A DNA stretch of 53,301 nt from a virus (lineage: Duplodnaviria > Caudoviricetes). The stretch is taken from the IMG/VR virus record IMGVR_UViG_3300032297_000671, positions 1-53,301 of that record; one strand, 5' to 3'. The translations under genes and the position numbers were made by a program. Of the stretch, positions 6,115-39,646 are shown in pieces. The stretch's first letter is position 1. Every line of letters begins with the position of its first letter. The notes below the pieces were generated by a model that was not told the DNA's origin, did not search any database, and was given only the letters and a program-made list of their open reading frames with translations.

Positions 6115-6600
6115 ATGACAGATATCAAGAAAATAAAACCCAATGGGGATTATAAATCTGGACTCTATGTACCAAAAAACCCTGAAAAGTATATTGGTGA
6201 CGTCCATAATATAATTTGTAGATCCTCGTGGGAATTTAGATTCTGTAGATATTGTGATTCGAACGAGAGAATACTCAAATGGAGTTCAGAACCTTTAAAA
6301 ATTCCTTATTATAATCCGCTCGATAAGAAGGAGCATGTTTATAACGTTGATTTTTATATACAGGTTTTACAGGATGATGATAATAAGCAAGACTGGATAA
6401 TAGAGATAAAACCAGAATCACAATTTAAAAGACCCATCCTGGAAGGTAATGCTACTTTACAAAAGCTAAAATCATACAACCATAAAATGCAAGTCTGGAT
6501 TACTAACCAGGCAAAATTCAAATATGCTAAAGAATGGGCATCTGCGAGAGGATACAAATTTGGTGTGGTTGATGAAAATTTTCTATTTAAAAGCAAGTGA
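6115..6600 (+). CDS. gp4: head completion nuclease (T4 gp4-like, TnsA-type fold)
   Basis: Motifs PKNPEKYIGD, RSSWE, WSSE, IPY, H.Y.VDF, IEIKP and N.AK...A..W. Confidence 0.88.
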   Translation: MTDIKKIKPNGDYKSGLYVPKNPEKYIGDVHNIICRSSWEFRFCRYCDSNERILKWSSEPLKIPYYNPLDKKEHVYNVDFYIQVLQDDDNKQDWIIEIKPESQFKRPILEGNATLQKLKSYNHKMQVWITNQAKFKYAKEWASARGYKFGVVDENFLFKSK

Positions 6601-7233: not shown

Positions 7234-8862
7234 ATGGCAGGATTCACAGATAACCCACAAGGAAATCCCATATTTCAAAGAATTAAGGATTCAGTAAAAT
7301 CCCTGAGTAATTTTGGATTAAGGTACGGTGATATGGTCATTAGGAACTCCCAGGCTATCGGTCAGACCGAAGCTGAGTTCATGAAGAAAGGTCCTATCGA
7401 AGATGATACAATGTTGTATTCACTAGGTAGACAAGATACAACAACAAAGCAATTTATTGGTTATTTTGATAAGGATTACGCAGGTAAGAGAGATTACCTT
7501 AGAAAGTTTTCACTAAATCCTGAAATCGAATATATTCTGGATACTGTTTGTGACGAGTCCATAACTTACGATTCCTATAATTTTTTTGCATACCCAGCTT
7601 TTCTTAATCTAACCAATATAAAAGAAAAGGTTATAAATAGAATTGACTCAAACTACAAGAAATTGTATGATATGTTTGGGTTTAGCGACGATAGCACTGC
7701 TTGGCAATATTTCAGGCAGCTTCTTGTTGACGGATTTATCGCATTTGAGATTATTTACGATGACAAGGGTAAAAATATCATAGGATTTAAAGAACTTGAT
7801 GCAACGACATTAATGCCATCTGTAGAAAAACAGAAGGATGGATCTTTTCTTAATGTTTGGTATCAATATCCTAAGGACATTAATAAGAAGAGAATGCTCT
7901 ATGATTCTCAGATAGTCTATATCTCATATGCTAAGGGAAATACAGTTTCCAGGGTTTCTTATGCTGAAAGATTGATTAGACCTTATAACATATTAAGAAT
8001 CATAGAGTATACCCGTGTTATATGGTCGGTAATGAACGCTTCATTCAGGATGAAGATGACAGTTCCTATCGGATCAAGATCACCTCAGAAGTCAATGCAA
8101 ACCTTAGGTGAATTGATGAGTATCTATAAAGAGGATATAAGATTTAATGACGATAGTGGAGAACTTACTGTAGACGGTAGACCGAAAATACAGTTCTACA
8201 AAAATTATCTTATGCCTTCAGGTGTAAATGGTACACCAACTATCGAGCCTTTAAACACTGCGGGTCCTAATCTTAATGATCCCGCTCCATTAGCATATTT
8301 CTTTGACAAATTAGCACAGGAATCAAAAATTCCTTTTTCTAGATTCCAAGGACCGGATGGAGGATCTATAGGTCAATATTCAAATTCTGCAGAAGGACTT
8401 GACAAGGAAGAAATCAGATTTGCAAAATTTGTAACGAGATTGAGATCTATATTTCAGGATATCCTTGTTAAGCCACTATGGATCCAGATGTGTAAGGATT
8501 TTCCGGAGCTTGAAAAGGATTATCTTTTTAAAAGTCAACTTGGATTAACTTTTGTTTCTGATAACCCATTTAGGGTAAATCAAGAAATAGAGACCATGAC
8601 AAAAAAGAAAGAGTCTATTGATAGTCTTTATGGGTTAACTGATGAAGATGGTAAGCCATTCTTTTCTTTAGCTTATCTTATAGAGAGCTATTTGGGTATG
8701 ACTGCTGATGATATTAAGGCTAATGAGGAGGCAAAGAAAAAAAGAAAAGAAGAATTAAAGAAGGAAGGTAAAAGTGAAGAAGCTGCTGCACCTGCTGAGG
8801 GATCTGCAGAACCTGCGGAACCTGCAGAAACACCCGAAACAGAAACACCTCCAGCTGAATAA
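7234..8862 (+). CDS. gp20: portal protein, paralog A (T4 gp20-like)
   Basis: PEIE..LD.VCDESI, FRQLLVDG, SYAERLIRPYNILRIIE...VIW, SKIPFSR and EEIRFAKFV.RLR..F are gp20 family motifs. Confidence 0.88.
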   Translation: MAGFTDNPQGNPIFQRIKDSVKSLSNFGLRYGDMVIRNSQAIGQTEAEFMKKGPIEDDTMLYSLGRQDTTTKQFIGYFDKDYAGKRDYLRKFSLNPEIEYILDTVCDESITYDSYNFFAYPAFLNLTNIKEKVINRIDSNYKKLYDMFGFSDDSTAWQYFRQLLVDGFIAFEIIYDDKGKNIIGFKELDATTLMPSVEKQKDGSFLNVWYQYPKDINKKRMLYDSQIVYISYAKGNTVSRVSYAERLIRPYNILRIIEYTRVIWSVMNASFRMKMTVPIGSRSPQKSMQTLGELMSIYKEDIRFNDDSGELTVDGRPKIQFYKNYLMPSGVNGTPTIEPLNTAGPNLNDPAPLAYFFDKLAQESKIPFSRFQGPDGGSIGQYSNSAEGLDKEEIRFAKFVTRLRSIFQDILVKPLWIQMCKDFPELEKDYLFKSQLGLTFVSDNPFRVNQEIETMTKKKESIDSLYGLTDEDGKPFFSLAYLIESYLGMTADDIKANEEAKKKRKEELKKEGKSEEAAAPAEGSAEPAEPAETPETETPPAE

Positions 8863-8873
8863 AATAAAACGAT

Positions 8874-10478
8874 ATGGCCGGATTTCTAGATAACGTAGCG
8901 GAAAGAACATTCTTAGGTAACCTGTACAAAAACCTATCCAGAATAGGTAAGTTTGGTATGGAGTACCAAGATATGGTTATTAAAAATTCACAGGCAATTG
9001 GTTCGACAGAATCTAATTTTTTTAATGAGCAAGGGAGCGGATTTACTGAGAATGATGCTTTTAGATGGACTCTTGGATATCAAGATACCCAAATTAGAAA
9101 ATACATTGCTTATTTTGATAAGGATTATGTAGGTAAGAGGGATTTTCTTCGAAAATTTTCCTTGAATGGTGAGATTGATTTTATTCTTGATACAATTACC
9201 GATGATTCTGTAAATTACGATGATAAGAATTTCTTTTCTTATCCATCACTAGCAAACATAGATCTTAAGAATAATGTTGTAGATAAGTTGGACGAAACGT
9301 ACAGGAATCTCTATATGCTTTTCGGTTTCCAGCAGAGTATTCTTGCCTGGCAATATTTTAGACAATTCCTGATAGACGGTTTTCTTGCATTTGAGATTGT
9401 ATATTCTACCGATGGTAAAAAAATTGTAGGTTTTAAAGAGCTCGATGCTACTTCACTTCAGCCAGCAACAGAAAAACAACCTAACGGTGAATTCCAGCAA
9501 ATTTGGATTCAATACCCGAATGATAATAAGATGACCAGAAGGTTAAAAGCTGAACAGATTATTTATATTTCTTATGCTAAGGGTAACACAGTCTCTAGAG
9601 TTAGCTATGTAGAAAGATTAATAAGATCATACAATATCCTACGTATAATGGAAAATACTAGGGTTATTTGGAATGTTATGAATGCCTCTTATCGTTTGAA
9701 ATTTGTCATCCCTGTTGGTAGTCAATCACAGCAGAAAGCAATGCAAACCCTTGGGCAGTTAATGTCTATCTACAAGGAGGAAATAGATCTGAATGATTTT
9801 TCCGGAGAATTAACAGTAAACGGTAGACCAAAGGTTCAATTTTATAAGAATTATTTGTTTCCTGAGAAAGATGGACAATCTCCAGATATTTCGACCCTGG
9901 ATCCTAATGGTCCGGATTTTAATGTGATGGAGAACGTTGTTTATTTCTATAATAAACTTAAACTAGATTCAAAAATACCTTATGCTAGATTTGCTTTTAG
10001 AGGGGGTACACCAGCAAATTATCAGATAGCCATAGATCAGCTTGAAAGGGATGAAATAAGATATGAGAAATTCTTAACTAGACTTAGATCAATCTTCCAA
10101 GAAATACTCGTTAAACCTCTTTATATTCAGATGTGTTTGGATTTTCCTGAATTATCAAAGGATAGATCATTTAAGGCTAATTTAGGTCTGGATTTTGTAA
10201 GAGAGAATTTGTTTGAAGAATTAATACAGCTTCAGAATTATACCAAGAGAAGCGATTTTATTACTGCTCTTGGAGGAATGAACCAGAAAATAGGAGAAGC
10301 TGAAACCCCTTACTTTGATAAAGAATTTCTAATAAAAAGATTCCTTGGTATTACTATGGATGAGTTTAGGAAGAATGAAAAGTATAAGGAAAACGAAGCT
10401 AAGGAAGCTAAAAAGGCTGAAAAAGAAGGTGGTGCTACTGAAGAAGGTGGCGGTGGTGGAGAAAGCTTTACTCTTTAA
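8874..10478 (+). CDS. gp20: portal protein, paralog B (T4 gp20-like)
   Basis: Colinear with paralog A throughout: YFDKDY.GKRD.LRKFSLN, FRQFLIDG, YISYAKGNTVSRVSY.ERLIR, SKIPYAR and DEIRYEKF..RLR. Confidence 0.88.
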   Translation: MAGFLDNVAERTFLGNLYKNLSRIGKFGMEYQDMVIKNSQAIGSTESNFFNEQGSGFTENDAFRWTLGYQDTQIRKYIAYFDKDYVGKRDFLRKFSLNGEIDFILDTITDDSVNYDDKNFFSYPSLANIDLKNNVVDKLDETYRNLYMLFGFQQSILAWQYFRQFLIDGFLAFEIVYSTDGKKIVGFKELDATSLQPATEKQPNGEFQQIWIQYPNDNKMTRRLKAEQIIYISYAKGNTVSRVSYVERLIRSYNILRIMENTRVIWNVMNASYRLKFVIPVGSQSQQKAMQTLGQLMSIYKEEIDLNDFSGELTVNGRPKVQFYKNYLFPEKDGQSPDISTLDPNGPDFNVMENVVYFYNKLKLDSKIPYARFAFRGGTPANYQIAIDQLERDEIRYEKFLTRLRSIFQEILVKPLYIQMCLDFPELSKDRSFKANLGLDFVRENLFEELIQLQNYTKRSDFITALGGMNQKIGEAETPYFDKEFLIKRFLGITMDEFRKNEKYKENEAKEAKKAEKEGGATEEGGGGGESFTL

Positions 10479-11501: not shown

Positions 11502-12848
11502 ATGACGAAAGAACTTTGGGTATTAGCTGAAATTGAACTTCTGACTGGAAACGGCTCACAAAAGGAGAAGCAGAGAATGATTTCGGAGAATCTTAGCGAT
11601 GAGATGCTTTATATTTTGGATGTTTGTTTTAATCCATTTGTAACTACTAAATTACATAAACTTGAGATTGAGAAATCTAGAGGTATATTGCCTCCTTCTG
11701 AATTTCCTGGATTTTCTGTTTTTAAGTCTCTTGTGGAGGATTTAAAAAAAGCACCAGCTGCAAACGATGTTTTAAGACAGAGAGCAAATACTTTAATTAA
11801 CACCAGGATTTCATCCGACCCTAAGGAGGATTTAATTTTAAGGGATATTCTGATGAAGATCCTGACCAAGAGAATGAATATTGGGATTGGTGCAAAGCTA
11901 ATCAATAAAGCAGTTGGAAGAGAATTAATACCTGATCCTTCACTAATGTTAGCTTCAGATGACCAGAAAGAAGTTCCAAATTGGGGTAAAATATACTGTG
12001 AGGAAAAGTATGACGGTGTTCGTGTAATAGCGGTCGGGAATCGAGAAAATGGATTTCGTTTTTACACAAGAGCTTTTAATGAATTAGACAAAACTAAGCT
12101 TTCTAGAATAGAATTATCATTGTGTAATCTTTTGGATAAAGCAAATACTCCAGGTGAGGTATTTTTCGACGGGGAGCTTACTGACATAAATAGAAAATCA
12201 GTATCAGGTAAGGTAACCCAAATATTAAAAGGAACCGCATCAAACGACATTGATAAAGATTTCCTCTTCAATGTGTTTGATGTTGAAAAAGCTGAAGTGC
12301 TTAAAACAGGAAAGGGTACAACACCTTTTATAAAAAGGAGAGAGAAGTTAGAATTCTTGCTTGGGTTTCTCGAGTCTGGTTCTCCTGTAACTTTAGCACG
12401 TCAATGGGTAGTAGATTCTATTGAGGAAACTCAGAAAATATACGGATTGATAGTTTCGATGGGAGGAGAAGGGGTTATTTTAAAACCAGAAGACCATATC
12501 TATGAATGTAAAAGGAGTAAGAATTGGGTTAAGCTTAAACAAATTCAAGACTGTGATCTAGAAATTGTTGGCTGGTATCCAGGTGAAGGTAAAAGGGAAG
12601 GATTTATTGGTGGATTTATATGCACGGATCTTAGCAAAACCCTGAATGTTAAGGTTGGATCCGGATTTACAGATTCAGATCTACAATCGCTTAGCATCGA
12701 CCCGGATTCTTTGATAGGAAAGATCGCAGCAGTTCAATATAACGAGCCGATCACGGATAAACATGGTAATAGAAGCCTATTTCTTCCCCGATTTATCGAA
12801 TTGAGAAATGATAAGGATCTACCTGATGATATGTCTAAATCATTTTAA
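11502..12848 (+). CDS. lig: ATP-dependent DNA ligase
   Basis: Motif I EEKYDGVR, then FDGE, EGVILK, WVKLK and a C-terminal OB fold (KVGSGF, LFLPRF..LR.DK). Confidence 0.93.
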   Translation: MTKELWVLAEIELLTGNGSQKEKQRMISENLSDEMLYILDVCFNPFVTTKLHKLEIEKSRGILPPSEFPGFSVFKSLVEDLKKAPAANDVLRQRANTLINTRISSDPKEDLILRDILMKILTKRMNIGIGAKLINKAVGRELIPDPSLMLASDDQKEVPNWGKIYCEEKYDGVRVIAVGNRENGFRFYTRAFNELDKTKLSRIELSLCNLLDKANTPGEVFFDGELTDINRKSVSGKVTQILKGTASNDIDKDFLFNVFDVEKAEVLKTGKGTTPFIKRREKLEFLLGFLESGSPVTLARQWVVDSIEETQKIYGLIVSMGGEGVILKPEDHIYECKRSKNWVKLKQIQDCDLEIVGWYPGEGKREGFIGGFICTDLSKTLNVKVGSGFTDSDLQSLSIDPDSLIGKIAAVQYNEPITDKHGNRSLFLPRFIELRNDKDLPDDMSKSF

Positions 12849-13847: not shown

Positions 13848-14192
13848 ATGAATAAGAATTTTATAGTTTTTTTGATTATAATAGCATTGTCCCAAGCTGG
13901 ATCGTGGATTCAGCAATTTGCTTTTATAAAATGGGACTGGTTTAAAAATAACATGATACTCTCTACTGTAATATTCGGTAGTTTGATATCTATTGGGTTC
14001 GTAATGGGAGCTAGAGTTGGATATGATATATGGGGAAATACTTGGAGTATTAGGTTAGTTCAGTTTTCAATTGGTATATTTGTTCTTACATTATGTTCTT
14101 GGTTATTTTTAGGTGAATCTATAGACTTGAAGAATGGAATATCACTTTCGCTTGCTTTTGCTATAGTTCTGTTACAGGTATTTTGGAAATGA
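13848..14192 (+). CDS. small 4-TM membrane protein (SMR/DMT-like size and topology)
   Basis: 114 aa with four hydrophobic helices and a WLFLGE motif before the last helix. Confidence 0.6.
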   Translation: MNKNFIVFLIIIALSQAGSWIQQFAFIKWDWFKNNMILSTVIFGSLISIGFVMGARVGYDIWGNTWSIRLVQFSIGIFVLTLCSWLFLGESIDLKNGISLSLAFAIVLLQVFWK

Positions 14193-14713
14193 TGAAAAGA
14201 ATAATTATAGTAGGTAAAGGTGGATCAGGTAAGGATCACCTTAGAAAAGAATTAGAAAAGTTAGGATTTAGATATTGTATCTCACATACAACACGTCCTC
14301 CTAGAGATGGTGAAATTAATGGTGTTGATTATCACTTTATATCTAGAGAATCAGCTGCATTTGAATTTGCTGCAAAGGGTAAATTCTACGAATATGTCAT
14401 ATTCAATGAATGGCTATACGGAACATCAGTTGAAGAATTCGAAAAAAGCAATCTCTTTATAATGACACCTTCGGGTCTTTCTAAAATGAAAGAATCAGAT
14501 AGAAAAGAATCGATTGTGATCTACCTTGATATAGATGAGAATGTGAGGAGGGATAGAATTTCTAAAAGAAATGATGCTGATAAAATAGAGAGAAGACTGG
14601 AGGCAGACAAGAATGATTTCTTGTCATTCACTGACTTTGATTATGTTATAACGGATCCTTTTTTCTCAGTAGGCGATCCGATTTTTGATTTAAATAGATA
14701 CACTCATGATTAA
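14189..14713 (+). CDS. gmk: guanylate kinase-like protein
   Basis: P-loop GKGGSGKD, SHTTRPPRDGEINGVDYHF and YGT. The ATGA overlap supports the start at 14189. Confidence 0.85.
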   Translation: MMKRIIIVGKGGSGKDHLRKELEKLGFRYCISHTTRPPRDGEINGVDYHFISRESAAFEFAAKGKFYEYVIFNEWLYGTSVEEFEKSNLFIMTPSGLSKMKESDRKESIVIYLDIDENVRRDRISKRNDADKIERRLEADKNDFLSFTDFDYVITDPFFSVGDPIFDLNRYTHD

Positions 14714-15839
14714 CGTTTTAATAGACGGAAACTATATTTTCCACAAAACTTTTGGTGTTTTTGGTGGATATGGATCTAAAGATCCTGGAGAGATCCTAAA
14801 AACTGCGGGAGAGCAGTCAATGTTTATAAGAAAAATAACTACAGATCTTTGCTCTGCTTTAAGGTCTCTTCCTATTGGAGGAAGATTAATTTTTACTGTT
14901 GATAGCAGAAGTTGGAGGAAGGATGTTGAAATTGAAGGTGGAGGATATAAATCAAATAGGGTTAAAGACGAGAATGTTGATTGGAGCGTATTTTTCGATT
15001 TATTGCAAGCTTACGGTGAGCATTTAGAAAACATGGGATTTGTGTTTTCTAAAGTTGATGGTGCAGAGGGTGATGATCTTCTTTATTTTTGGTCAGATTA
15101 TTTCAATACGAAGGGAGAGGATTGTATAATAATATCTGGTGATAAAGACATGTACCAGCTTGCTAGATGGAAGGGACCAAATTGGACTGTTGTTTGGAAT
15201 AGTAATTCTAAGAATAATATTCTTTCTGTTCCTCAATCTTGGGAATCTGATTGGTTGAACAAATCGGGGGAGGCAACTATTTTTAACATATCAGAATCGA
15301 TGGATCCTGACAAGGATAGATTTAAAGATTTCGTTAAAAAGATAGACGTCCAGGAAATAAATCCAAGGGATTTTGTTTTTGTTAAGATGTTGATAGGTGA
15401 TAAAGGAGATGCCGTTCCCGGTATTTGGGAAATGAAGGTCGGGGAAAAAACAAATAATTTAACTCCAAAAAAAGCTGAAAATATCCTTGCATCTCTACAA
15501 GAATCTAAATGGAAAGATTCAGAATTCAAAGATTTGATATCTGATTCTGAATTTTTAGATTGGATATCAGGAATGACCCTTAGAATAATGAAGGATGTTG
15601 ATAGCCAAGAAAACAGAGAGAAGGTTTCTTCCAATCTGCTGAGAAATTATAAGTTAATGTGGCTTGATAAGTATGTCATACCAAGGGAAGTTATAGAAAA
15701 GACTATATTGGAATTAAAAAGAGGAATATCTTTGCCTAGAAAATCTATAACACTTGATAGAGTAAAAATCCTTGACGGAACTAACTGGATTGTAACTCAG
15801 TCAGCACCTAAAAGCTTTGACCCATTTAACAACTTCTGA
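14706..15839 (+). CDS. rnh: 5'-3' exonuclease / T4 RNase H (FEN-like)
   Basis: Motifs LIDGN, D..SWRK, YK.NR, EGDD, ISGDKD..QL and GDKGD.VP. Confidence 0.88.
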   Translation: MINVLIDGNYIFHKTFGVFGGYGSKDPGEILKTAGEQSMFIRKITTDLCSALRSLPIGGRLIFTVDSRSWRKDVEIEGGGYKSNRVKDENVDWSVFFDLLQAYGEHLENMGFVFSKVDGAEGDDLLYFWSDYFNTKGEDCIIISGDKDMYQLARWKGPNWTVVWNSNSKNNILSVPQSWESDWLNKSGEATIFNISESMDPDKDRFKDFVKKIDVQEINPRDFVFVKMLIGDKGDAVPGIWEMKVGEKTNNLTPKKAENILASLQESKWKDSEFKDLISDSEFLDWISGMTLRIMKDVDSQENREKVSSNLLRNYKLMWLDKYVIPREVIEKTILELKRGISLPRKSITLDRVKILDGTNWIVTQSAPKSFDPFNNF

Positions 15840-16855: not shown

Positions 16856-17338
16856 TTGCGTCACATAAAATCTATAAATGAATTCTTCGACGTTGGTGTA
16901 TTTGGAGACACCTACGGATACGGTGGTGCAAATGGTGTTTTTAAAGTACAATATAAGCCTTATAAGGATCTTTCTGTTACTGTAGGTCCTGATCCTAATG
17001 TTGCAAGAACTATTCCAGGTGCAGAATTTCAGATCGGAGATACCGTTATCGGTTTACCTATAAACTCAAAAAAGAAAGTAGCTGGAATGATCGTGAAGGT
17101 CGATAAGGCTCCCGATGGTAAATCGTATAGATACTTTGCTCAGGTCTCTTCGAAAGGAAAGAAGAAGGAAGATGTGCTAGAGCTGGTTCCTAGTACAGTT
17201 GTTTTTGCCGATTCTGGAGACAAAGGACATAAGGAAATAATTTCTAAGTTTAAATTTAATAATCTCCCTTCCGAGGTATACAATTCACCTACTGTTTACA
17301 ATAACACCTCTCTTGGTATAGAGGCAATGGGTAGTTAA
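16856..17338 (+). CDS. putative internal head protein with SH3/KOW-like region
   Basis: N-terminus MRHIKSINEFF is capsid-targeting-like; the protein also has FQIGDTVIG...GMIVKV. Confidence 0.55.
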   Translation: MRHIKSINEFFDVGVFGDTYGYGGANGVFKVQYKPYKDLSVTVGPDPNVARTIPGAEFQIGDTVIGLPINSKKKVAGMIVKVDKAPDGKSYRYFAQVSSKGKKKEDVLELVPSTVVFADSGDKGHKEIISKFKFNNLPSEVYNSPTVYNNTSLGIEAMGS

Positions 17339-17369
17339 GAAACTTTAATCTTTTTTTACTGTAAAAGAA
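17339..17369 (+). promoter_or_regulatory. putative ECF-like promoter GAAAC-N17-GTAAAAG
   Basis: Intergenic, with the conserved spacing. Confidence 0.65.
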
Positions 17370-17372
17370 CTG

Positions 17373-18251
17373 ATGATCTTAAGTAAGAACACAGGTAATC
17401 TTGGTTGCGTAAATAAAAATTTTGGCAGGTCTATAACTTCCTGTTATGATTTCGTGCAGATGGTTTTGAATGAATCTATTGACGCTAATTCTAAATCAAT
17501 AAAATTGTCTTGTTTTGAGATTGGACAGGATTTTAATTTTCCTGACTTTTCTTCCATCGAGGAAGAAGATAAAGTGATGGATCTGATATGGGATCTTTCT
17601 AATTTAATTAGAACTAATTCACATAGGATATTTTTCTTTCTCCCTGGATATTATTTTTTGGGAAGTCAAATGCCAGATGTTGTTGAAAAAACTAGGGAAA
17701 CTGTTCTATCAATTTCTGTTTTTCTTGAAATGATAGGAGTTAGATCAACGTCGATTATATTAAGAGTTGGATCTGCTTATGGTGCTAGAAAAGCAACAAT
17801 GGAAAGATTTAACTCTGAGATTAATTCATTTTTACCTGGAGTTAAAAAATTAATCGCGGTTACGAACGACGAAAAACCTAGTCTTTTTTCGGTAACAGAT
17901 CTTTTGTCCGGTGTTTATTATCAAACCAAAATTCCTATATGTTTTAGATTCCTAGCTCATACCTTCAATAACGGTGGGCTTACATATAAGGAAGCACTAT
18001 TTCTTTCCTGCTCAACGTGGAAAGAAGGTGAAGTTCCAATTTTCATATATTCTGAATCTGACGAAATAGATGAGTTCGGGGCTTTTGTATCGCCAAAGAC
18101 AGCATTAAAGCTAAATCATAGAATCCCAACATTCGGCCTAGAGACAGACGTAATTATAGACTCTGAAAGATCTAAAGAAACCTGTATTAAGTATATGACT
18201 GAAAGAAGCTCATTGAGACCTATAGTCATCAACAAAATGTCTAAGAAATAA
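17373..18251 (+). CDS. uvsE: UV-damage endonuclease (UvsE/UvdE)-like protein, apparently lacking metal ligands
   Basis: VG.AYG.RK.TM.RF, NDEKPSLFSV.DL, IPI.F and TW....P...YSES are recognisable, but the expected His/Asp/Glu ligands are substituted. Confidence 0.7.
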   Translation: MILSKNTGNLGCVNKNFGRSITSCYDFVQMVLNESIDANSKSIKLSCFEIGQDFNFPDFSSIEEEDKVMDLIWDLSNLIRTNSHRIFFFLPGYYFLGSQMPDVVEKTRETVLSISVFLEMIGVRSTSIILRVGSAYGARKATMERFNSEINSFLPGVKKLIAVTNDEKPSLFSVTDLLSGVYYQTKIPICFRFLAHTFNNGGLTYKEALFLSCSTWKEGEVPIFIYSESDEIDEFGAFVSPKTALKLNHRIPTFGLETDVIIDSERSKETCIKYMTERSSLRPIVINKMSKK

Positions 18252-18275
18252 TTTTTTTATAGCGTTCTTTTTGGG

Positions 18276-18283
18276 TATTTTTG
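18276..18283 (+). promoter_or_regulatory. possible Bacteroidota-type housekeeping -7 element (TAnnTTTG)
   Basis: TATTTTTG in the intergenic region, 15 nt before ATG 18299. It is the only clear instance seen. Confidence 0.4.
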
Positions 18284-18298
18284 TAAAAAAAGAAAGAT

Positions 18299-19108
18299 AT
18301 GCCAGAATTAGCTGAGCTTAAGCTCACTGCAGATTATGTAAATAAACAATCGAGGGATCGTATATTTCATCTTGTAAAAAAACAGGAATATCATAAGGGA
18401 GAGGATATTTTCTCTTGTTTAGATTTTCCTTTTATCATAGAAGCAAGCAGTAGAGGAAAGGAATTAATGTTAACTATTTCAACTGCCCCTGAGTTTGCAA
18501 CTGAGGACAATATGCAGGTTAAGCATCTGATGATGACGATGGGAATGGGAGGATGTTTTAAATGGGTTCCTAAGAACGAAGAGCAAAAGCATGCACATAT
18601 CCATTTTATTTCAGATGATGGTTACCTTGCATTTGTTGATATTAGAAGATTTGGGAAATGGAAATGGGGACATTGGAACATTGATAGAGGACCTGATCCT
18701 ACGTTGGACTACACCGCTTTTGTCAATAACATAACGGAAAATTTGGATCATAGGGATTTTAGTAAGCCAATTTATGAAGTCCTTATGAATCAGAGATGGT
18801 TCAATGGAATAGGTAATTATTTACGTGCAGAAATACTTTATCGAATAGAAGGCGCAGACCCTTTCTCGAGTGCAAAGGATTATATTAATTCATATGGACC
18901 TGAATTATTTTCTTTGTGCCGTGACATTCCCATGCTAGTATATAAACTCGGAGGTGGTACATTAAGAGATTGGGAAAACCCATTCGGTGAAGTATCATCG
19001 ATCGGGTCTGTAATGAAATGCTATTACAATCCTACTATGAATAAGATGAAAGATAAAAACGGTCGTACTTTTTGGTATGACCCAAAATGGGAAAAATATG
19101 ATAAATAA
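18299..19108 (+). CDS. nei: Fpg/Nei-family DNA glycosylase/AP lyase, NEIL1-type with zincless finger
   Basis: N-terminal MPE, RGKEL, FVDIRRFG, H2TH motif NQRWFNGIGNYLRAEILYR and C-terminal DKNGRTFWY without zinc-finger cysteines. Confidence 0.92.
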   Translation: MPELAELKLTADYVNKQSRDRIFHLVKKQEYHKGEDIFSCLDFPFIIEASSRGKELMLTISTAPEFATEDNMQVKHLMMTMGMGGCFKWVPKNEEQKHAHIHFISDDGYLAFVDIRRFGKWKWGHWNIDRGPDPTLDYTAFVNNITENLDHRDFSKPIYEVLMNQRWFNGIGNYLRAEILYRIEGADPFSSAKDYINSYGPELFSLCRDIPMLVYKLGGGTLRDWENPFGEVSSIGSVMKCYYNPTMNKMKDKNGRTFWYDPKWEKYDK

Positions 19109-19808
19109 AGGTACACTTAAGAACTGTCTTTTCTTTGATGTTGAGACAGCAACAGGATTCAAAGATTTTTCTTCACTCAAAGAAAGCAACGAAAGACTTT
19201 CTAAGCTCTGGGAGAAAAGATGTGAATATTACAGGAAAGCATATCCAGAGTTATCAGACAAGTCTGTTGACGAGATATATCTTGAAAAAGCTTCATTGGA
19301 GCCTGAATTTTCTAGAATTGTTTGTGTTTCTTTTGGCACACTTGATAGCTCATCCAATCTAAGAATAGTTTCTTTCTGGGGCGATGATGAGATTCATATA
19401 CTCGAAAAAAGCTGTAAAGTATTTAGAAATGCATATGCTAAAGGTATGAAATTAGCTGGGCATAATATAAAGGGATTTGACGTTGCTTGTCTGGGCAAAA
19501 GAATAGTTTACACTGGTGTTGAAAATGGAACTGTTCCACCTAATCTTAATATATGGGATAAGAAGCCTTGGGATTTGCCATTTCTTGATTCATCCGAGAT
19601 ATTTTCTTTTGGTAACTGGGTACAACAAAAATATCTAAGCCTTGATCTTTTAGCATGCTCTTTAGGGGTAGAATCACCTAAAGAAAATCTTGATGGCTCG
19701 ATGGTCTCACATTTTTTCTGGGAATTGAAAGAATATGATTCAATTAAAGATTATTGCGAGCTTGATGTCAAAACCGTTTTTGAGGTCATGAATAAGGTGA
19801 GTATCTAG
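19098..19808 (+). CDS. DnaQ-like 3'-5' exonuclease (PolB-exo2-like)
   Basis: ExoI FFDVET, EFSRIVCVS, ExoII GHNIKGFD, KKPW and ExoIII YCELDV. Confidence 0.85.
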   Translation: MINKGTLKNCLFFDVETATGFKDFSSLKESNERLSKLWEKRCEYYRKAYPELSDKSVDEIYLEKASLEPEFSRIVCVSFGTLDSSSNLRIVSFWGDDEIHILEKSCKVFRNAYAKGMKLAGHNIKGFDVACLGKRIVYTGVENGTVPPNLNIWDKKPWDLPFLDSSEIFSFGNWVQQKYLSLDLLACSLGVESPKENLDGSMVSHFFWELKEYDSIKDYCELDVKTVFEVMNKVSI

Positions 19809-19836
19809 GTCTTAATCGGTTTTTTAAATTCTATCT

Positions 19837-19874
19837 AGGATTATTTGGATATATAAACCAAATAATCCTTTTTT
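19837..19874 (+). terminator. terminator-like hairpin enclosing a late promoter
   Basis: AGGATTATTTGG-ATATATAAA-CCAAATAATCCT-TTTTT. GATATATA at 19848-19855 spans the loop, and the hairpin abuts GTG 19875. Confidence 0.75.
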
Positions 19875-20666
19875 GTGAATACTGTTTTAGATTTTTCGTC
19901 ATATTTTCTTACTGAAGCAAAGATAGGCTCATTTTATAATGATGAGCTAAATCCTAAATTTTGGGATAAGTATACATCAAAAGACGGTAAGGTAAAATGG
20001 GTATTCGATCCTTTGGTTCGAAAGAAGCTTCTTAAAATAGCTGACGATTTCTATTCTAAGTTCGGGGATCTACTTGGAGATCTTCCTATATCTGATATCC
20101 AATTAACAGGATCTCTTGCTAACTACAATTATACGGATCAATCTGATTTGGATGTCCACGTTTTGGTTGATTTCAGCAAGATAAGTAACGATAAAAAAAC
20201 TTTAAAGGCTGCTATAGATGGTATCAGATTCATGTGGAATCTGAGACATGATGTTATAATAAGAGGCCATGATGTTGAGCTATATCTGCAGGATATCAAA
20301 GAACCTCACACAGCATCTGGATTATATTCACTTCAAGATAATAAATGGATCAGAGTTCCTAAATTCGATCCACCAGAAATTGATGAGCAAGATGTGAAGA
20401 AAAAATTCGAATCTATAGTTTCCGAAATCTCGAATTTAGAATCAAAGCTTGTACTTGTTCCAGAATTACCATCGGAAGCGAAAGATCTTTATAAGAGATT
20501 AAATAGGATCAAGGAAAAGGCTCAAAAAATGAGGAAAGAAGATCTAGGATCAAAGGGTGAATTCTCTGTTGGTAATCTCGTCTTTAAAAAGCTCAGAAAC
20601 GAGGGATATATAGCTAAACTGATAGATCTCATATCTAAGTCTTACTCAAGGATTTATTCAGAATAA
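19875..20666 (+). CDS. Pol-beta-superfamily nucleotidyltransferase
   Basis: DIQLTGSLANYNY...SDLDVHV carries the GS and DxD motifs, and DVELYLQD supplies the third acidic residue. The N-terminus MNTVLDFSSYFLTEA is CTS-like. Confidence 0.85.
   Translation: MNTVLDFSSYFLTEAKIGSFYNDELNPKFWDKYTSKDGKVKWVFDPLVRKKLLKIADDFYSKFGDLLGDLPISDIQLTGSLANYNYTDQSDLDVHVLVDFSKISNDKKTLKAAIDGIRFMWNLRHDVIIRGHDVELYLQDIKEPHTASGLYSLQDNKWIRVPKFDPPEIDEQDVKKKFESIVSEISNLESKLVLVPELPSEAKDLYKRLNRIKEKAQKMRKEDLGSKGEFSVGNLVFKKLRNEGYIAKLIDLISKSYSRIYSE
20605..20612 (+). promoter_or_regulatory. possible late promoter for 20680
   Basis: GATATATA 67 nt before ATG 20680, inside the 3' end of the upstream gene. Confidence 0.45.
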
Positions 20667-20679
20667 AAAATTTAAAAAG

Positions 20680-23316
20680 ATGATTCTAGTTTTTAGAAAA
20701 GGCGCTGTCTATAAGGCTACACCAGCCTCAGCAAAAAGAGATACAGTAAAGCCGGAGAATATTTTTCCATTAATGTCATTGCCTCTAAATGCTAAGGGTG
20801 TTGCAACAGATCTTAATGATTTTCAATGGTGGGCATATTCTGATAGATGGGATAAATGGTTAAAAGCTAATCCTAGAGAATGGACAGCTGAATCAATAGA
20901 TCCTGCTAAGTATGATTACAATACATTAAAGGAGGAGCTTGATAATAGAGTTAGACCTCTTACAAATTACATTTCTGATCAGGCATCTAGTCTAATCACT
21001 GGTGAAAAAGCAGTTAGCTTTACCGAGTATATGAAGATCCTCGAATCTAATGAAGAGGAAGCGTCTGGATCTAAAGATGCATTGAAAAAGTATATTAAAC
21101 TTGGATATGCAGTAGATTCCTTGAGAAAATCAGGAAAGCTAAAAACCACAATGGCGGTTTCTTCTCTCGAAGCAGGAAAACCTTATGCAGTGGTGGTTGA
21201 TTTCATGGACGAAACCCAAAAACCGATAGCTGAATCTAGGCAGGCTTTGAGAATGACTAAGATAAAGGAAACTCCGAAACTTGTTCTTGCAAAAGTTGAT
21301 TATAGTATCCCTACCGGAAAAATAGAGGATGAAGTTGATAGCTTTTTGGATAAGGTTATAGACGTTACAAAAAGCGTAGCAATTGCAGGAGTATCTTTAG
21401 CTGCTATCTACGGTGTTGTTCAAGTAGCCGGATCGATATGGGGTGGATGGCAACTATTCAAAACCGGAAATAAAATTTACAATTGGGCTACTAAAAAACC
21501 TGCTATAGAAGCTGCAGCAAAAAGCGGTGGTGGAGCATGGAATGCTATTAAGAATTTTGCAACAACTGCATGGAGTGGAAAAAATGCAGCATCTGTTGTT
21601 AATGCAGCAAGAACTACACTTCCTTCTGGAGCATTTGTTGAAGGCGGACTTGCCTATTCTGCTGAAGGTGTTCTCCTTAGAGGTGCAGCAGCAAACTCTG
21701 TTAAAGCAGCAGCAGGAAGACTAATTGCACAGAACGGTGGTGCAGCAGTTGCAGCAGCAGGAGCCGAAGCAGCAGGAGTATCTGGTATAGTTGCAGCAGA
21801 AGCATCTAACCCGATAGGATGGATAATAGCAGCGGCTTCGATCATAGGATCCGGTGTTAATCAGATATGGAACTGGATGAGTGATAAGCAAGCCCCAAGA
21901 TATTCTGATATCGATAGCTTTGCTTATGGAAGCTTCTCCCCTGGTGATATTCCTGTAGGAAAACCAATTACTGTTTGTTGGACTAGCGACGGTGGAGGTG
22001 GTGGATGGGGATTCGTTGCGGATCTTCTAACATTTTCTAAAGACGATACAAGAACTACAATGGAACTTGTTAAAATTGGAAGCTTTAAAGATAGATCTAT
22101 CTTCCTATTAACTCAGGTTAATTCTAAGGGTCTTCAGAAAATGATGAAGGATAACGATTTAATACTTCTTTCATTTGATAACGGTGATAAGTTCGAAAGA
22201 GGTACATTCGATAATGATGATCTTGAATTTGAAACTATCGCAATACAGGATATAACTAAGCTAACTATTGGAACTTCTTTTGTTGGATACAGCGGATGGG
22301 AAGATATGCAAAGTGCATATAACGAAGCACCCGATTCTGCATTTTATGTACCTGGTGGAGCTAGACAAGAATACCCATTCCACTATGAAAATGCGGAGGG
22401 TAAAAAAGTCAATGTAACAGGAACCCTTGTATCTAAGGATGAGCTTGAAAATATGGACATCGCTAGATTGGTTCCGATCCCGGGTGAGGGTGTTCTAGCC
22501 GAATCTAAATCTATTGTTTATGTAAATTCTTTAAATGAGAATAAATCAGTTCTTTCTTTTGACGAATTCTTTAGCGACAGAAAAGCAATTATGGAAGATG
22601 ATAAATCTGAGGATAATGAGACAGAGGATCAAGCTGAAATGAGTAATTGGTCTAGAGAATTCACCGAAAGAAAATCTTCATCCAACTATAGATCTTCATC
22701 TAGCTACGGACAAATTCCTATGGCTGTATACAAAGTTGATAATCTACAATATGTTGATCCGAATGAGAGTGGAAAAGCAGGAGACTTTTCTTACTATATA
22801 GTAGATCCGGATAGCTTGGATGCTCAACCTGGACAAGCTATTGGTGTTGAATCTGCATCTACTGAAGATGCTATCAACGATCCTAGATTTGGACTTGATA
22901 CTTACGTTAAACCTGAGGTTGAGCAACAGGAAGAGACACCTGAGGAGGAAGAAGTTATCATAGAGCCTGTAGAGGAAGAGCCGGGAGAAGTTATATCAAC
23001 ATCTAAGGGAGATGTTAATATCAGGAAAGGTAAAAATTCAGTAACTATAAAAGACAAGGAAGTTAGTGGAGGTGTTAATATACTTGATGAATTCGGTACA
23101 GATGAACTTAAGAAAGACCTTGCTATCAATAATTGGGATGGAGTTACTTCAGTTAAGCTAAGATACGATCGACTTGGCGAACCCCTTAATGTTATTATTA
23201 AAAATAGAGGAGCTTCTGCTGGAGATAAAAGAAGAGTTATCCGAAGAGGAGAGCTTGGATTTGATGATGCTGTAAAATTTGCAAAGGACGTTGAATCTGG
23301 AATAAAAACGATTTGA
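20680..23316 (+). CDS. large putative virion/ejection protein with Ala/Gly-rich hydrophobic helices
   Basis: Hydrophobic segments VAIAGVSLAAIYGVVQVAGSIWGGW and NPIGWIIAAASIIGSG, plus several [LI]xES sites. It lies directly upstream of the head genes. Confidence 0.6.
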   Translation: MILVFRKGAVYKATPASAKRDTVKPENIFPLMSLPLNAKGVATDLNDFQWWAYSDRWDKWLKANPREWTAESIDPAKYDYNTLKEELDNRVRPLTNYISDQASSLITGEKAVSFTEYMKILESNEEEASGSKDALKKYIKLGYAVDSLRKSGKLKTTMAVSSLEAGKPYAVVVDFMDETQKPIAESRQALRMTKIKETPKLVLAKVDYSIPTGKIEDEVDSFLDKVIDVTKSVAIAGVSLAAIYGVVQVAGSIWGGWQLFKTGNKIYNWATKKPAIEAAAKSGGGAWNAIKNFATTAWSGKNAASVVNAARTTLPSGAFVEGGLAYSAEGVLLRGAAANSVKAAAGRLIAQNGGAAVAAAGAEAAGVSGIVAAEASNPIGWIIAAASIIGSGVNQIWNWMSDKQAPRYSDIDSFAYGSFSPGDIPVGKPITVCWTSDGGGGGWGFVADLLTFSKDDTRTTMELVKIGSFKDRSIFLLTQVNSKGLQKMMKDNDLILLSFDNGDKFERGTFDNDDLEFETIAIQDITKLTIGTSFVGYSGWEDMQSAYNEAPDSAFYVPGGARQEYPFHYENAEGKKVNVTGTLVSKDELENMDIARLVPIPGEGVLAESKSIVYVNSLNENKSVLSFDEFFSDRKAIMEDDKSEDNETEDQAEMSNWSREFTERKSSSNYRSSSSYGQIPMAVYKVDNLQYVDPNESGKAGDFSYYIVDPDSLDAQPGQAIGVESASTEDAINDPRFGLDTYVKPEVEQQEETPEEEEVIIEPVEEEPGEVISTSKGDVNIRKGKNSVTIKDKEVSGGVNILDEFGTDELKKDLAINNWDGVTSVKLRYDRLGEPLNVIIKNRGASAGDKRRVIRRGELGFDDAVKFAKDVESGIKTI

Positions 23317-32844: not shown

Positions 32845-33331
32845 GTTTGCTTCAATCTCAGATTTACCTATATTTAAATTTGAATTTGTCGATTGGTTCA
32901 AAAATTTAGAATTAGTAGATTCCCAAGAATCTACCCATTTATTTGCATTAGGAAAAGAGTCTATGCTAATGCAATTGAATAGAGATGGTCTTTTACCTGA
33001 TTTCATTCTCGATAGAGGTATTTTAACAGTTATGACCTGGGGAATACTTTCAGGAAGAATAACTGAATCCAAGGCACATGAGCAACTTTCCATGATTTGT
33101 GAAGCAGGTCTTTTCGATAACATTAGGATATTCTATGTGGTTGGTGAAAATCCAGACCGGTCTAGTAGGAATAAGGATGTTTGGGACTTTAGAGAATCCG
33201 ATAATAGAGAATCTGAGATCATGGAAAATCTAAGAGATCATATTTCTAATAATCCATATAACGTGCAGGTTGAGTACATTTTTAATGAATTCAACGAAGA
33301 TTCTGTACGATCTCTACATAAATTTATATAA
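32789..33331 (+). CDS. P-loop nucleoside monophosphate kinase (thymidylate kinase-like)
   Basis: IFEGQRNSGKT P-loop and ILDRG motif. Confidence 0.7.
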   Translation: MITIFEGQRNSGKTFLAHKFASISDLPIFKFEFVDWFKNLELVDSQESTHLFALGKESMLMQLNRDGLLPDFILDRGILTVMTWGILSGRITESKAHEQLSMICEAGLFDNIRIFYVVGENPDRSSRNKDVWDFRESDNRESEIMENLRDHISNNPYNVQVEYIFNEFNEDSVRSLHKFI

Positions 33332-33332
33332 A

Positions 33333-34730
33333 ATGTGCGGTATACTAATAACTAAAGAAATCTCGGACAGAGTAATCGATTCGATTAAACATAGAGGAAT
33401 TGAAAAAACAATTGTTAGTAAGGGATTGTTTAATCTTTGTCATCACAGACTTCCTATCCAAACCTCAGATGGCGATGATTGGAACCAGCCAAAGGAGATA
33501 AGTCCTGGGATCTTCCTCTTGTTCAATGGAGAGATATTTAATTACGATAGAAATAGGTATTCATCAGACATCGAGTATCTCTGTAGTTTATTTTCTAACT
33601 ATCGTGGTGGAAACTTCGATTTATTTTGTGCTTTCTATCTTTCTCAGATACAAACATGGGATGGATTTTGGGCTATAGTTTTATATGATGCTAATCTTAA
33701 TGAGGCTATTGCTTTTACAGATCCTTTAGGAAAGAAGTCTTTGTATTTCAATAATATTGGTGAGATCTGTTCTGAGATAAAGGGAGTAGTTAGTGATAAT
33801 TCCCCGATTGATGAAATCTTTATGAGCTCAGTTAGAAAATGGGGATATAATACAGACGAGAGAACTCCATATACGGATGTCAAGAGAATTTTACCAAATG
33901 ACATCTACCATTTGAATCTAGATAACGTAGAAATTAGAAAGATCTATAAAGAATATTACAAGGGATTCGATTCCCCAATAACTGAATTAATAGGTGCTTC
34001 CTACGAGGATCACATGGAGTGGTTATGGAGCAAAATGTTTGAGTCAGTTAAGAATAGACTTGTATCAAAAAACTACCCAATTTCTTTGCTAATTTCTGGT
34101 GGACTTGATTCCTCTATCATAGCTTCTATATTAAAAGAAATTGGTGCTGACGTCAGGTGGTTTAGTATAGAGAATGGTGAAAGGGAATATGTTGAATTGC
34201 TTTCTGAGTACTTATCAACTAACGTAACATTCCTTGACTATTCGATGGAGGATGATAAGAATGACGAGATATACAAAAAATGGAACGAGTCCCCAATTGA
34301 TCTCGGATCAGCTATTCCTCAGTATTACTTATTTGAAGCTATTAAAAAATTCGGAGGATATCGTATAGTTTTAAGTGGTGATGGATCTGACGAACTCTTT
34401 GGAGGATACAGAAGGATCCACGAATACGATTCACAGAAATCTGATATCTTCGAGGAGCTTTCTTATTATCACTTGCCTAGACTTGATAAGATGTCAATGG
34501 CACATACTTTAGAATTGAGAAGCCCATTCCTTAATCTTGATCTTGTTAGATTTGCTCTACATTTACCTAAGGAATGGAGAACAGATAAAAAAATTCTAAA
34601 GGACACCTTTGCACCGATATTACCCGAGGAAATAGTCAATAGAAAAAAAGAAGCTCTAAAGAATCCTCAGATAAAAGAAGATAAAATAAAGTATCGATAT
34701 AAGGTAATTGACAGATTTATTAAGCAGTAG
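33333..34730 (+). CDS. asnB: asparagine synthetase (glutamine-hydrolysing)-like amidotransferase
   Basis: The true start is MCGI at 33333 (Ntn cysteine). Other motifs: HRG, HHRL.I, FNGEIFNY, SGGLDSS, LSGDGSDELFGGY and DKMSMAHTLELRSPFL. Confidence 0.88.
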   Translation: MCGILITKEISDRVIDSIKHRGIEKTIVSKGLFNLCHHRLPIQTSDGDDWNQPKEISPGIFLLFNGEIFNYDRNRYSSDIEYLCSLFSNYRGGNFDLFCAFYLSQIQTWDGFWAIVLYDANLNEAIAFTDPLGKKSLYFNNIGEICSEIKGVVSDNSPIDEIFMSSVRKWGYNTDERTPYTDVKRILPNDIYHLNLDNVEIRKIYKEYYKGFDSPITELIGASYEDHMEWLWSKMFESVKNRLVSKNYPISLLISGGLDSSIIASILKEIGADVRWFSIENGEREYVELLSEYLSTNVTFLDYSMEDDKNDEIYKKWNESPIDLGSAIPQYYLFEAIKKFGGYRIVLSGDGSDELFGGYRRIHEYDSQKSDIFEELSYYHLPRLDKMSMAHTLELRSPFLNLDLVRFALHLPKEWRTDKKILKDTFAPILPEEIVNRKKEALKNPQIKEDKIKYRYKVIDRFIKQ

Positions 34731-38995: not shown

Positions 38996-39646
38996 ATGGA
39001 ATGGCTGAAAAAGATTTTTTCAAAGAAGAAAAAAATGGACTTTAAAGATAAAACACTGCCTGAGCTTCAGGAAGAACTCTCACAATTTGACTTTACTTGG
39101 ATTAAAGGCGATCAGATGGGAAATATTGAAAGATATGACGATGTCGTATCTGACGAAACCACAGGCATGACATTCGTTTGCTTTAAAAGTGGAGGAAGAA
39201 TTAACATAGAACTACTTAGTGAATATCTAGATCCATTCCCAGCTACTAAAGTAAACTATGGAAATGTTACAGAATCTGCTCCAATCCAAGCCCCTCAACT
39301 AGATCGAATCCATCAAGATTCCCCGCAGAAGTCTCAGCGATCAGGAAGCAATCAGGTTTCTTCTGTTGAGGTTGAGGATTCCCCGATATATACATTGCTT
39401 AAAAAACAGAAGACAAATTGGGTTAATGTAAACATAAGCCTGAAGTTGAATCTACCTTCTAAGAGTCTTTATGGTATCCTAATAAATTCTTTTGATGAAG
39501 CAGAAAGCGAAATTATAGACTATGTAACAGAGGGTATTGACATAGAAGATATTAGAAACGCTCTTGGAGATTCTATTTCTGCTTATTATGATAAGAAAAA
39601 GTCCTCCAGTGTAGTAAGTGAAAAAAACAATTCCGAAGATGAATAA
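38996..39646 (+). CDS. hypothetical protein
   Basis: 216-aa ORF with an amphipathic N-terminus MEWLKKIFSKKKK. An alternative start is MDFKDK. Confidence 0.7.
   Translation: MEWLKKIFSKKKKMDFKDKTLPELQEELSQFDFTWIKGDQMGNIERYDDVVSDETTGMTFVCFKSGGRINIELLSEYLDPFPATKVNYGNVTESAPIQAPQLDRIHQDSPQKSQRSGSNQVSSVEVEDSPIYTLLKKQKTNWVNVNISLKLNLPSKSLYGILINSFDEAESEIIDYVTEGIDIEDIRNALGDSISAYYDKKKSSSVVSEKNNSEDE

Follow-up and report, generated by a model that had tools for sequence, protein, structure and literature searches.

The locus considered here raises the question of how a tailed phage comes to carry a DNA repair gene of the NEIL1 type, and what the encoded enzyme might do for the virus. NEIL1 is commonly seen as an enzyme of eukaryotes, chiefly of animals, to which bacterial proteins are only distantly related. 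The stretch of DNA in question (the window, 53,301 nucleotides in length) is the entire IMG/VR virus record IMGVR_UViG_3300032297_000671, which is linear and assigned to the Caudoviricetes. A first-pass annotation, made from the sequence alone, had read one of its genes as a phage glycosylase resembling metazoan NEIL1 rather than bacterial Fpg or Nei, and the open reading frame (ORF) it pointed to is recovered with exactly the same coordinates:

18299..19108, + strand: NEIL1-type Fpg/Nei DNA glycosylase/apurinic-apyrimidinic (AP) lyase gene, with an ATG start, 269 amino acids (aa), tail-less (ORF, phmmer, Pfam and Foldseek)

The encoded protein is of the NEIL1 type and much closer to eukaryotic NEIL1 than to bacterial Fpg or Nei, a conclusion that draws on sequence, the Pfam finger model, fold and phylogeny. 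In a search of PDB chains, which matched 32 distinct sequences at E≤0.01, all 15 top sequences are human NEIL1 (E 7.8e-46 to 2e-43, 152–160 bits), with the best phmmer alignment covering residues 1–261 of the query and 1–282 of the chain (E 7.8e-46, 160 bits). The top chain other than NEIL1 is bacterial Fpg 4cis, with 29 bits and an E-value of 5.5e-6; Fpg, Nei-type, plant and Mimivirus chains reach at most 29 bits, and no NEIL2 or NEIL3 chain was matched at E≤0.01 in this search. The six colinear motif pairs listed in the first-pass annotation are all present in the HMMER alignment (window protein/human NEIL1): assrgkel/ASARGKEL, khahihf/RHAHLRF, fvdirrfgkw/FVDIRRFGRW, nqrwfngignylraeilyr/DQRFFNGIGNYLRAEILYR, lcrdip..vyklgg/LCHSVP..VVQLGG and kcy.np.m....dkngrtfw/RCY.MP.M....DRHGRTIW. 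At the level of sequence, the resemblance to NEIL1 can be judged far beyond chance.

The ORF translation begins with MPELAEL, and three regions can be distinguished along it:

18299..18661, + strand: N-terminal beta-sandwich catalytic domain, residues 1–121, with Pro2, Glu3, Glu6, Lys54 (in RGKEL), Met83, Arg116 and Phe118 (PF01149)
18689..18877, + strand: helix-two-turn-helix (H2TH) DNA-binding region, residues 131–193, with the FNGIGNYLRAEILYR motif (PF06831 below its cut-off; invariant residues; helices in the model)
19013..19081, + strand: zincless finger, residues 239–261, a beta-hairpin with Arg256, Trp259 and a single Cys (PF09292; strands in the model)

The Pfam model for the Fpg/Nei N-terminal catalytic domain, PF01149, matches residues 1–121 with an E-value of 8.3e-13 (49.4 bits vs a cut-off of 25.5), and the NEIL1-specific finger model PF09292 (Neil1-DNA_bind) matches residues 239–261 with an E-value of 2.6e-8 (33.9 bits vs a cut-off of 25). 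An AlphaFold2 model built on a 27-row alignment has a mean predicted local distance difference test score (pLDDT) of 92.6 and a predicted template modelling score (pTM) of 0.89; it places strands at residues 248–251 and 257–260 of the finger and a helical H2TH region that superposes on that of NEIL1. Compared with the PDB by Foldseek, the model retrieves, among the matches listed, human NEIL1 only, with full-chain TM-scores of 0.84–0.87, 34–37% identity and E-values down to 7e-27.

The residues expected of a working enzyme of this class are in place. With the human numbering taken from the HMMER alignment, Pro2, Glu3, Glu6 and Lys54 have identical numbers in human NEIL1, Met83 corresponds to human Met81, Arg116 to Arg118, Phe118 to Phe120, and Arg256 to Arg277, the finger arginine. 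P2, E3, E6, K54, M83, R116, F118, N169, G172, N173, Y174, R256 and W259 are kept in all 81 IMG/VR homologues and all 11 homologues from metagenome-assembled genomes (MAGs), and the first seven of these are invariant in alignment A1. K54 is further kept in all 72 representative rows with a short C-terminal tail and in 37 of the 38 with a long one, while the H2TH residues Q165, N169, G172, N173 and Y174 are invariant across 202 of 202 ingroup rows, as is R256, which is also found in the outgroups. The finger region (residues 236–261) contains one Cys, so that there is no Cys4 site and no zinc would be bound, which bears out the earlier remark that the C4 zinc finger is absent; the C-termini of the Fpg/Nei outgroups, in contrast, read CxxC...CxxC.

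The window protein belongs to a large and mostly viral family. A word-indexed protein search returned 1901 proteins (clusters at 90% identity) at E≤0.001 from 2037 candidates, and the 120 proteins listed from it are 50–100% identical to the window protein, 251–295 aa in length and nearly all metagenomic. An exhaustive search of representatives at 50% identity gave 1194 matches at E≤1e-3, of which 134 reach E≤1e-30. Within IMG/VR, one degenerate pattern yielded 360 confirmed loci, of which 80 were kept, and the neighbour clusters in the ESM Atlas are 84–95% 'Viruses', mostly Uroviricota. Many homologues are named 'endonuclease VIII-like 1' by the Joint Genome Institute (JGI) pipeline, and the PHROGs match of the protein is phrog_21295, of 'unknown function'. 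Among the phage genomes in INPHARED, megablast of positions 17000–21000 of the window gave no match, and tblastn found no close cultured-phage relative, the 10 records returned all being distant Fpg-like proteins with 24–30% identity. Each of the 92 homologues fetched with its locus, 81 of them viral and 11 from MAGs, is encoded by an intact ORF of 258–292 aa. The ratio of nonsynonymous to synonymous substitution rates (dN/dS), taken over 162 pairs with 80–97% protein identity and dS<2, lies between 0.037 and 0.298 with a median of 0.087. The family is under strong purifying selection. Many of the phage homologues (e.g., L050, L052, L054–L064, L069, L080–L094), though not that of the window, carry a C-terminal extension ending in ...HYSGLPNPxAY or SGMPSPEAY; this conserved motif may be a partner-binding peptide that stands in place of the eukaryotic tail.

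In bacteria, a scan of 185,579 species genomes with one exact pattern, the counts from which are a lower bound, gave at least 11 confirmed loci, 8 of them in Poribacteria MAGs. Of the remainder, one in a Saprospirales MAG bin (L009) matches the window's phage lineage in its complete gene order and can therefore be regarded as a phage contig, and one in a Flavobacteriaceae MAG bin (L010) shares its NEIL1-Gmk arrangement with other phage loci. In two Poribacteria loci (L013:4720-7930 and L016:4741-7873), the gene is flanked by those for a THUMP/RlmL-type methyltransferase and a YkuD transpeptidase, with sulfatase genes adjoining; this setting is cellular and is conserved between the two. The NEIL1-type gene is the sole PF01149 match in 5 of 5 genomes checked, and its occurrence is patchy: of 61 genomes sampled from the phylum of the Poribacteria MAG, 2 carry it.

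On the eukaryotic side, a search for longer proteins returned 42 matches at E≤1e-10, of which the named ones are animal NEIL1 with 29–43% identity (abalone, oysters, Aplysia, crabs, sea urchins, Acropora, amphibians, sharks and a tardigrade). Cluster membership extends the range to a sponge (Sycon), the tardigrade Hypsibius, Paulinella (EukProt) and a protist transcript from MMETSP. The likeness that had been put down to metazoan NEIL1 thus stands as a likeness to the NEIL1 type, and the word 'metazoan' proves too narrow, since the eukaryote clade includes Paulinella and the MMETSP protist.

For the phylogeny, 110 of 150 listed representatives were kept, namely those with the H2TH motif, at least 140 residues ahead of it, and the finger motif. 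Before any tree was made, each row was classed by how many residues follow the finger, as 'short' (≤32 aa) or 'long' (≥40 aa); tails are accordingly ≤32 aa in the short-type rows and run from 40 to 383 aa in the long-type rows. The 110 representatives, the 92 locus proteins and 4 outgroups, with near-duplicates removed, made up a 140-row tree, from which, after a quick tree, 80 rows were hand-picked (59 short, 15 long and 6 Fpg/Nei outgroups) for a careful tree under LG+C20+F+G4 with posterior mean site frequencies (PMSF). The outgroups are the E. coli enzymes Fpg and Nei, a pair of phage-encoded Fpg proteins and, from genomes of the Poribacteria MAG's phylum, two Fpg/Nei proteins with a zinc finger; this set is small and does not include NEIL2/3, Mimivirus Nei or plant and fungal Fpg, which the PDB chain scores argue are not closer.

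In the careful tree, whose bootstrap had not fully settled, the ingroup of the phage family and eukaryotic NEIL1 is separated from the 6 Fpg/Nei outgroups with support of 100/99, so the window protein sides with the NEIL1 clade and does not group with ordinary bacterial Nei or Fpg, the outcome that the first-pass annotation had named as its refutation. The 15 long rows, among them sponge, cnidarian, mollusc and protist sequences, form a eukaryote clade (99/99, 98% of bootstrap trees) that leaves the window protein and all 59 short rows outside, the window protein being placed in the starred phage clade. The 140-row tree agrees, with a eukaryote clade of 40 rows (support 100) and a clade of 23 rows around the window protein (support 97) made up of IMG/VR contigs and two Bacteroidota-MAG contigs. 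The phage/bacterial tail-less family and eukaryotic NEIL1 can, as far as these sequences go, be taken as each other's closest known relatives.

The branching between the two is less settled. The short rows are not one clade in the free careful tree, where 4 of 59 fall outside the sister group of the eukaryotes, and their monophyly appears in 10% of bootstrap trees; a search constrained to short-type monophyly nonetheless beat the likelihood of the free search. Five trees were compared by the approximately unbiased (AU) test under both PMSF and LG+F+G4, with the following log-likelihoods (lnL) and p-AU values:

Constrained tree, short-type monophyletic (best): lnL -35594.70, p-AU 0.68 (PMSF); lnL -36622.79, p-AU 0.80 (LG+F+G4)
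Careful free tree, eukaryotes nested: lnL -35603.27, p-AU 0.43 (PMSF); lnL -36650.58, p-AU 0.27 (LG+F+G4)
'-fast' free tree, LG+F+G4 search: lnL -35652.60, p-AU 0.011 (PMSF); lnL -36646.38, p-AU 0.38 (LG+F+G4)
'-fast' constrained tree, LG+F+G4 search: lnL -35707.05, p-AU 0.0017 (PMSF); lnL -36721.28, p-AU 0.020 (LG+F+G4)
Quick free tree: lnL -35685.94, p-AU 0.012 (PMSF); lnL -36740.99, p-AU 0.020 (LG+F+G4)

Under either model the test rejects the quick tree and the '-fast' constrained tree and leaves the careful free tree standing; it rejects the '-fast' free tree under PMSF only. In the best tree, the phage/bacterial family is sister to the eukaryotes, with a very short stem of 0.04 for the phage family. 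The quick trees had nested the eukaryotes among phage lineages, with a root that shifted between runs, and their topology falls with the rejection (p-AU 0.012, 0.020); that a constrained tree lay 99 lnL units above the free quick tree says that the quick search was poor and nothing more. Likewise, a p-AU of 0.051 against short-type monophyly, obtained from the '-fast' LG+F+G4 pair, is superseded by the five-tree test with its better constrained tree. Since sister and nested topologies both survive the AU tests, the transfer could have run in either direction, and the gene may bear on the origin of animal NEIL1, as the first-pass annotation suggested. One might tentatively entertain a scenario, which the trees allow but which we consider rather doubtful, in which eukaryotic NEIL1 descends from a tail-less family of the prokaryotic world that was carried and spread by phages and fixed in a few bacteria such as Poribacteria. 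Were this true, the phage enzymes would be the ancestral minimal form, and eukaryotes would later have gained an insert and a regulatory tail.

The setting of the gene is that of a phage, as had been supposed. The window holds a set of T4-type genes, namely two gp20-type portals, a prohead protease, a gp23-type capsid protein and a clamp loader, and can be read from its gene content as a fragment of a large uncultured T4-like phage. CheckV puts its completeness at 18%, from which the whole genome would come to perhaps 300 kb. Nearly all long ORFs lie on the + strand, and G+C is even across the window (0.32–0.39). The glycosylase gene is accompanied by several genes for enzymes that act on DNA:

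17373..18251, + strand: UvdE-like ultraviolet (UV)-damage endonuclease, directly upstream (PF03851, 1.7e-10; PDB 3tc3, 3.1e-14)
19077..19808, + strand: PolB-exo2-type 3'-5' exonuclease, downstream, its ORF overlapping that of the glycosylase by 32 nt (PF10108, 8.6e-9; PHROG 25228, 8e-25)
11502..12848, + strand: ATP-dependent DNA ligase (PF01068, 1.3e-19; PHROG 114, 2e-76)
14706..15839, + strand: 5'-3' exonuclease/flap endonuclease (PF02739, 4.2e-12; PHROG 107, 2e-22)

The ligase, a guanylate kinase and the flap nuclease sit 2.5–7 kb upstream of the glycosylase gene. Counted over the 92 fetched loci, the order ligase...UvdE-NEIL1-exonuclease...protease recurs in 34, from many samples. UvdE lies upstream in 34 loci, all of one phage lineage, and the PolB-exo2 exonuclease downstream in 33 of the same syntenic lineage; the flap endonuclease belongs to the syntenic block in 33, and the ligase is syntenic in 32 (61–83% identity), with 6 more loci having only a 23–25% match elsewhere. 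Arrangements also occur outside this block. In a distant locus (L007, 36% identity), the PolB-exo2 exonuclease is upstream rather than downstream, and in 6 of the 92 loci (L002–L006 and L071) a PNKP-type HAD 3'-phosphatase (PF25109, 8e-30; e.g., L002:5545-5988) is encoded just upstream. Mammalian NEIL1 repair depends on PNKP, and the presence of a PNKP-type phosphatase beside a phage NEIL1-type gene mirrors that mammalian pairing.

Other features of the region may be recorded for their own sake. The guanylate kinase (14183-14713 in the window) is near the NEIL1-type gene in most phage lineages and in 60 of the 92 loci, often directly downstream. After the exonuclease come a conserved protein (19875-20666, + strand) with weak matches to nucleotidyltransferase folds and to PHROG 36119 of 'unknown function' (1.8e-39), and an 878-aa protein (20680-23316, + strand) with no family match, both being syntenic in 30 of the 92 loci. 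The two T4 gp20-type portal genes stand in tandem (7234-8862 and 8874-10478, + strand), match Pfam Portal_T4 in full (E 2e-60 and 8e-59) and encode proteins 53% identical over 505 aa; such a duplication of the portal is unusual for a tailed phage. The window also encodes a protein with a TnsA-like endonuclease domain (6115-6600), an asparagine synthase (33270-34730) and a NUDIX hydrolase (39618-40214). A Bacteroidota-type promoter motif, TAnnTTTG, occurs 23 nt upstream of the glycosylase start; such motifs precede 2 of 50 window genes vs a chance of about 3% per position, and this was dropped as evidence for the host. Scans for sigma-70 promoters and terminators were at chance level. The binning of MAG contigs gives a slight hint that the host may belong to the Bacteroidota.

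What, then, would the protein do? It most likely serves as an active, minimal NEIL1-type bifunctional glycosylase/AP lyase that repairs oxidised bases in the phage's own DNA during infection, with activity, substrates, lyase chemistry and partners extrapolated from the family, fold, catalytic residues, selection and neighbourhood described above. By homology with NEIL1 and Nei, the initiator Met would be removed, and the amine of Pro2, helped by Glu3, would attack C1' of the flipped-out damaged base to form a Schiff base, while Met83, Arg116 and Phe118 would plug the gap in the helix and the H2TH motif and Arg256 of the zincless finger would grip the phosphates of the lesion strand. Beta,delta-elimination would then leave a one-nucleotide gap with phosphate ends, and an enzyme cleaning the 3' end (of the phage or the host), a polymerase and the phage ligase would complete the repair. 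Within such a scheme, the UvdE-like protein might assist at UV lesions, at AP sites or in cleaning 3' ends, the PolB-exo2 exonuclease might take part in 3'-end processing, and the phage ligase could seal the repaired nick. A phage base-excision repair set of the kind first suggested from the presence of the ligase and exonucleases is thus plausible from the gene context. This context lends modest support to a repair role, the arrangements with the phosphatase and in L007 being more telling than synteny within one lineage; a PNKP-type phosphatase fits repair as a neighbour, since enzymes of its class take off the 3'-phosphate with which beta,delta-elimination ends.

Several points weigh against so direct a transfer of function from NEIL1. 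The H2TH region matches PF06831 (residues 131–193, E 1.4e-4) with 22.2 bits, below the cut-off of 34.7. The window protein lacks the C-terminal tail of animal NEIL1, a disordered, basic stretch of about 100 residues to which partners in repair and replication bind. The lesion-recognition loop reads GGGTLRDWENP in the window protein vs GGRGYGSE in human NEIL1, and, more broadly, GGGxL(K/R)DWxNP in the phage family vs GG(K/R)GY in eukaryotes. In the window protein, the loop (G218-G-G-T-L-R223-D-W225) holds one basic and one aromatic residue, on whose match to human residues 242 (Lys or Arg) and 244 (Tyr) the alignments disagree: with MAFFT the column of W225 is Tyr in 31 of the 38 eukaryote-type rows, while HMMER instead pairs human R242 with G220. 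Because the loop differs and human Arg242 is placed differently by the two alignments, the substrate range could differ as well from that of NEIL1, which takes in thymine glycol, hydantoins, Fapy and 5-OHU and extends to bubble and single-stranded DNA. The adjacency of UvdE and the exonuclease, being mostly synteny within one lineage, is weak evidence for shared function, and no homologue of the PNKP phosphatase was found in the 53 kb window, which is about 18% of the genome.

Alternatively, the Fpg/Nei chemistry might have been kept but turned from general repair of oxidative damage to another task, such as cutting host DNA at modified or damaged bases, editing the modified bases of the phage itself, or countering host defence. 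The family-specific loop is strongly conserved, W225 being kept in all 81 viral loci and D224 in 80 of them; neighbours vary with phage lineage, with the guanylate kinase close by in 60 of the 92 loci, and the PHROGs family is labelled as of unknown function. We nevertheless regard such a change of task as unlikely, since every residue needed for standard NEIL1/Nei catalysis and DNA binding is retained, the neighbours that can be named are of the repair type (UvdE, 3'-5' exonuclease, PNKP phosphatase, ligase and flap nuclease), and in Poribacteria the gene is the sole member of the Fpg/Nei family in an ordinary chromosomal setting, which suggests housekeeping repair. Invariant catalytic residues and a dN/dS of about 0.09 similarly make it very improbable that the protein is a catalytically dead DNA-binding relic.

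On a different kind of explanation, the resemblance would say nothing of a phage family, the gene being a recent capture from a eukaryote or the contig a contaminated or chimeric assembly. An identity of 32–43% to animal NEIL1 is indeed unusually high for a phage gene. Yet the relatives comprise 360 IMG/VR loci, 1901 clusters at 90% identity and 134 at 50% identity (E≤1e-30), the eukaryote clade (99/99, 98% of bootstrap trees) excludes all phage sequences, and a gene order flanked on both sides by T4-like genes recurs in 34 loci; G+C is even at 0.32–0.39, and there are neither introns nor a eukaryote-type tail. Such an origin is contradicted by these results and hardly credible, less so even than a dead relic.

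In PMC3188539 the NEIL1 clade is a metazoan one and the viral examples are enzymes of Mimivirus, and the review PMC8307549 proposes that H2TH glycosylases reached eukaryotes from the mitochondrial ancestor. No publication on phage or Poribacteria genes of the NEIL1 type turned up in a literature search that took in few subscription journals. Against this background, a very large phage-borne family with about 40% identity to human NEIL1 would be its closest non-eukaryotic relative, and offers a concrete outgroup for the question of where NEIL1 came from. It also supplies a natural minimal NEIL1 (269 aa, tail-less, with another recognition loop) for structure-function work, and suggests that large aquatic phages may bring their own base-excision repair of oxidative damage beside UV repair. 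The design of the enzyme is ordinary for a known class and was already labelled as such by JGI names and Pfam; what is notable is its host and its kinship.

Set beside known systems, the window protein shares with bacterial Fpg (MutM) and Nei (endonuclease VIII) the superfamily, the fold and the N-terminal Pro/Glu chemistry, but these enzymes and the Fpg-like proteins of cultured phages (e.g., Bacillus phage G gp292 and the MutM of Acinetobacter phage MD-2021a) are 23–29% identical to it and have a C4 zinc finger. A nearer parallel might be sought in Mimivirus Nei1 (MvNei1), reportedly published as a 'viral NEIL1 ortholog' (by Bandaru in 2007 and Imamura in 2009, it is said), which is likewise a virus-encoded Fpg/Nei glycosylase with a zincless finger. 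MvNei1, however, comes from a virus of eukaryotes and not from a phage. The PDB entries 3A42, 3A45 and 3VK7, which we take to be MvNei1 and which the search names just 'formamidopyrimidine-DNA glycosylase', match the window protein with E-values of 2e-5 to 4e-5 vs 8e-46 for human NEIL1; chains scoring so far below human NEIL1 indicate that the phage protein is much nearer to NEIL1 than MvNei1 is.

The closest comparison is with eukaryotic NEIL1 (endonuclease VIII-like 1; human structures 1TDH, 5ITX, 6LWx, 8FTJ), with which the whole catalytic core is colinear, at 36–37% identity in structural alignment and TM-scores of 0.85–0.87. The two have in common Pro2, Glu3 and Lys54, the intercalating Met-Arg-Phe residues, the FNGIGNYLRAEILYR H2TH motif and a zincless finger with an Arg equivalent to human Arg277. 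They part ways in the insert of about 20 residues that follows the H2TH region of NEIL1 and is missing from the window protein, and at the C-terminus, where the window protein stops 9 residues past the finger motif GRTFWY (...GRTFWYDPKWEKYDK) with a FWYDPKW end that is specific to the phage family and unlike NEIL1. The window protein is also set apart by being phage-encoded and by its place outside the eukaryotic NEIL1 clade (99/99).

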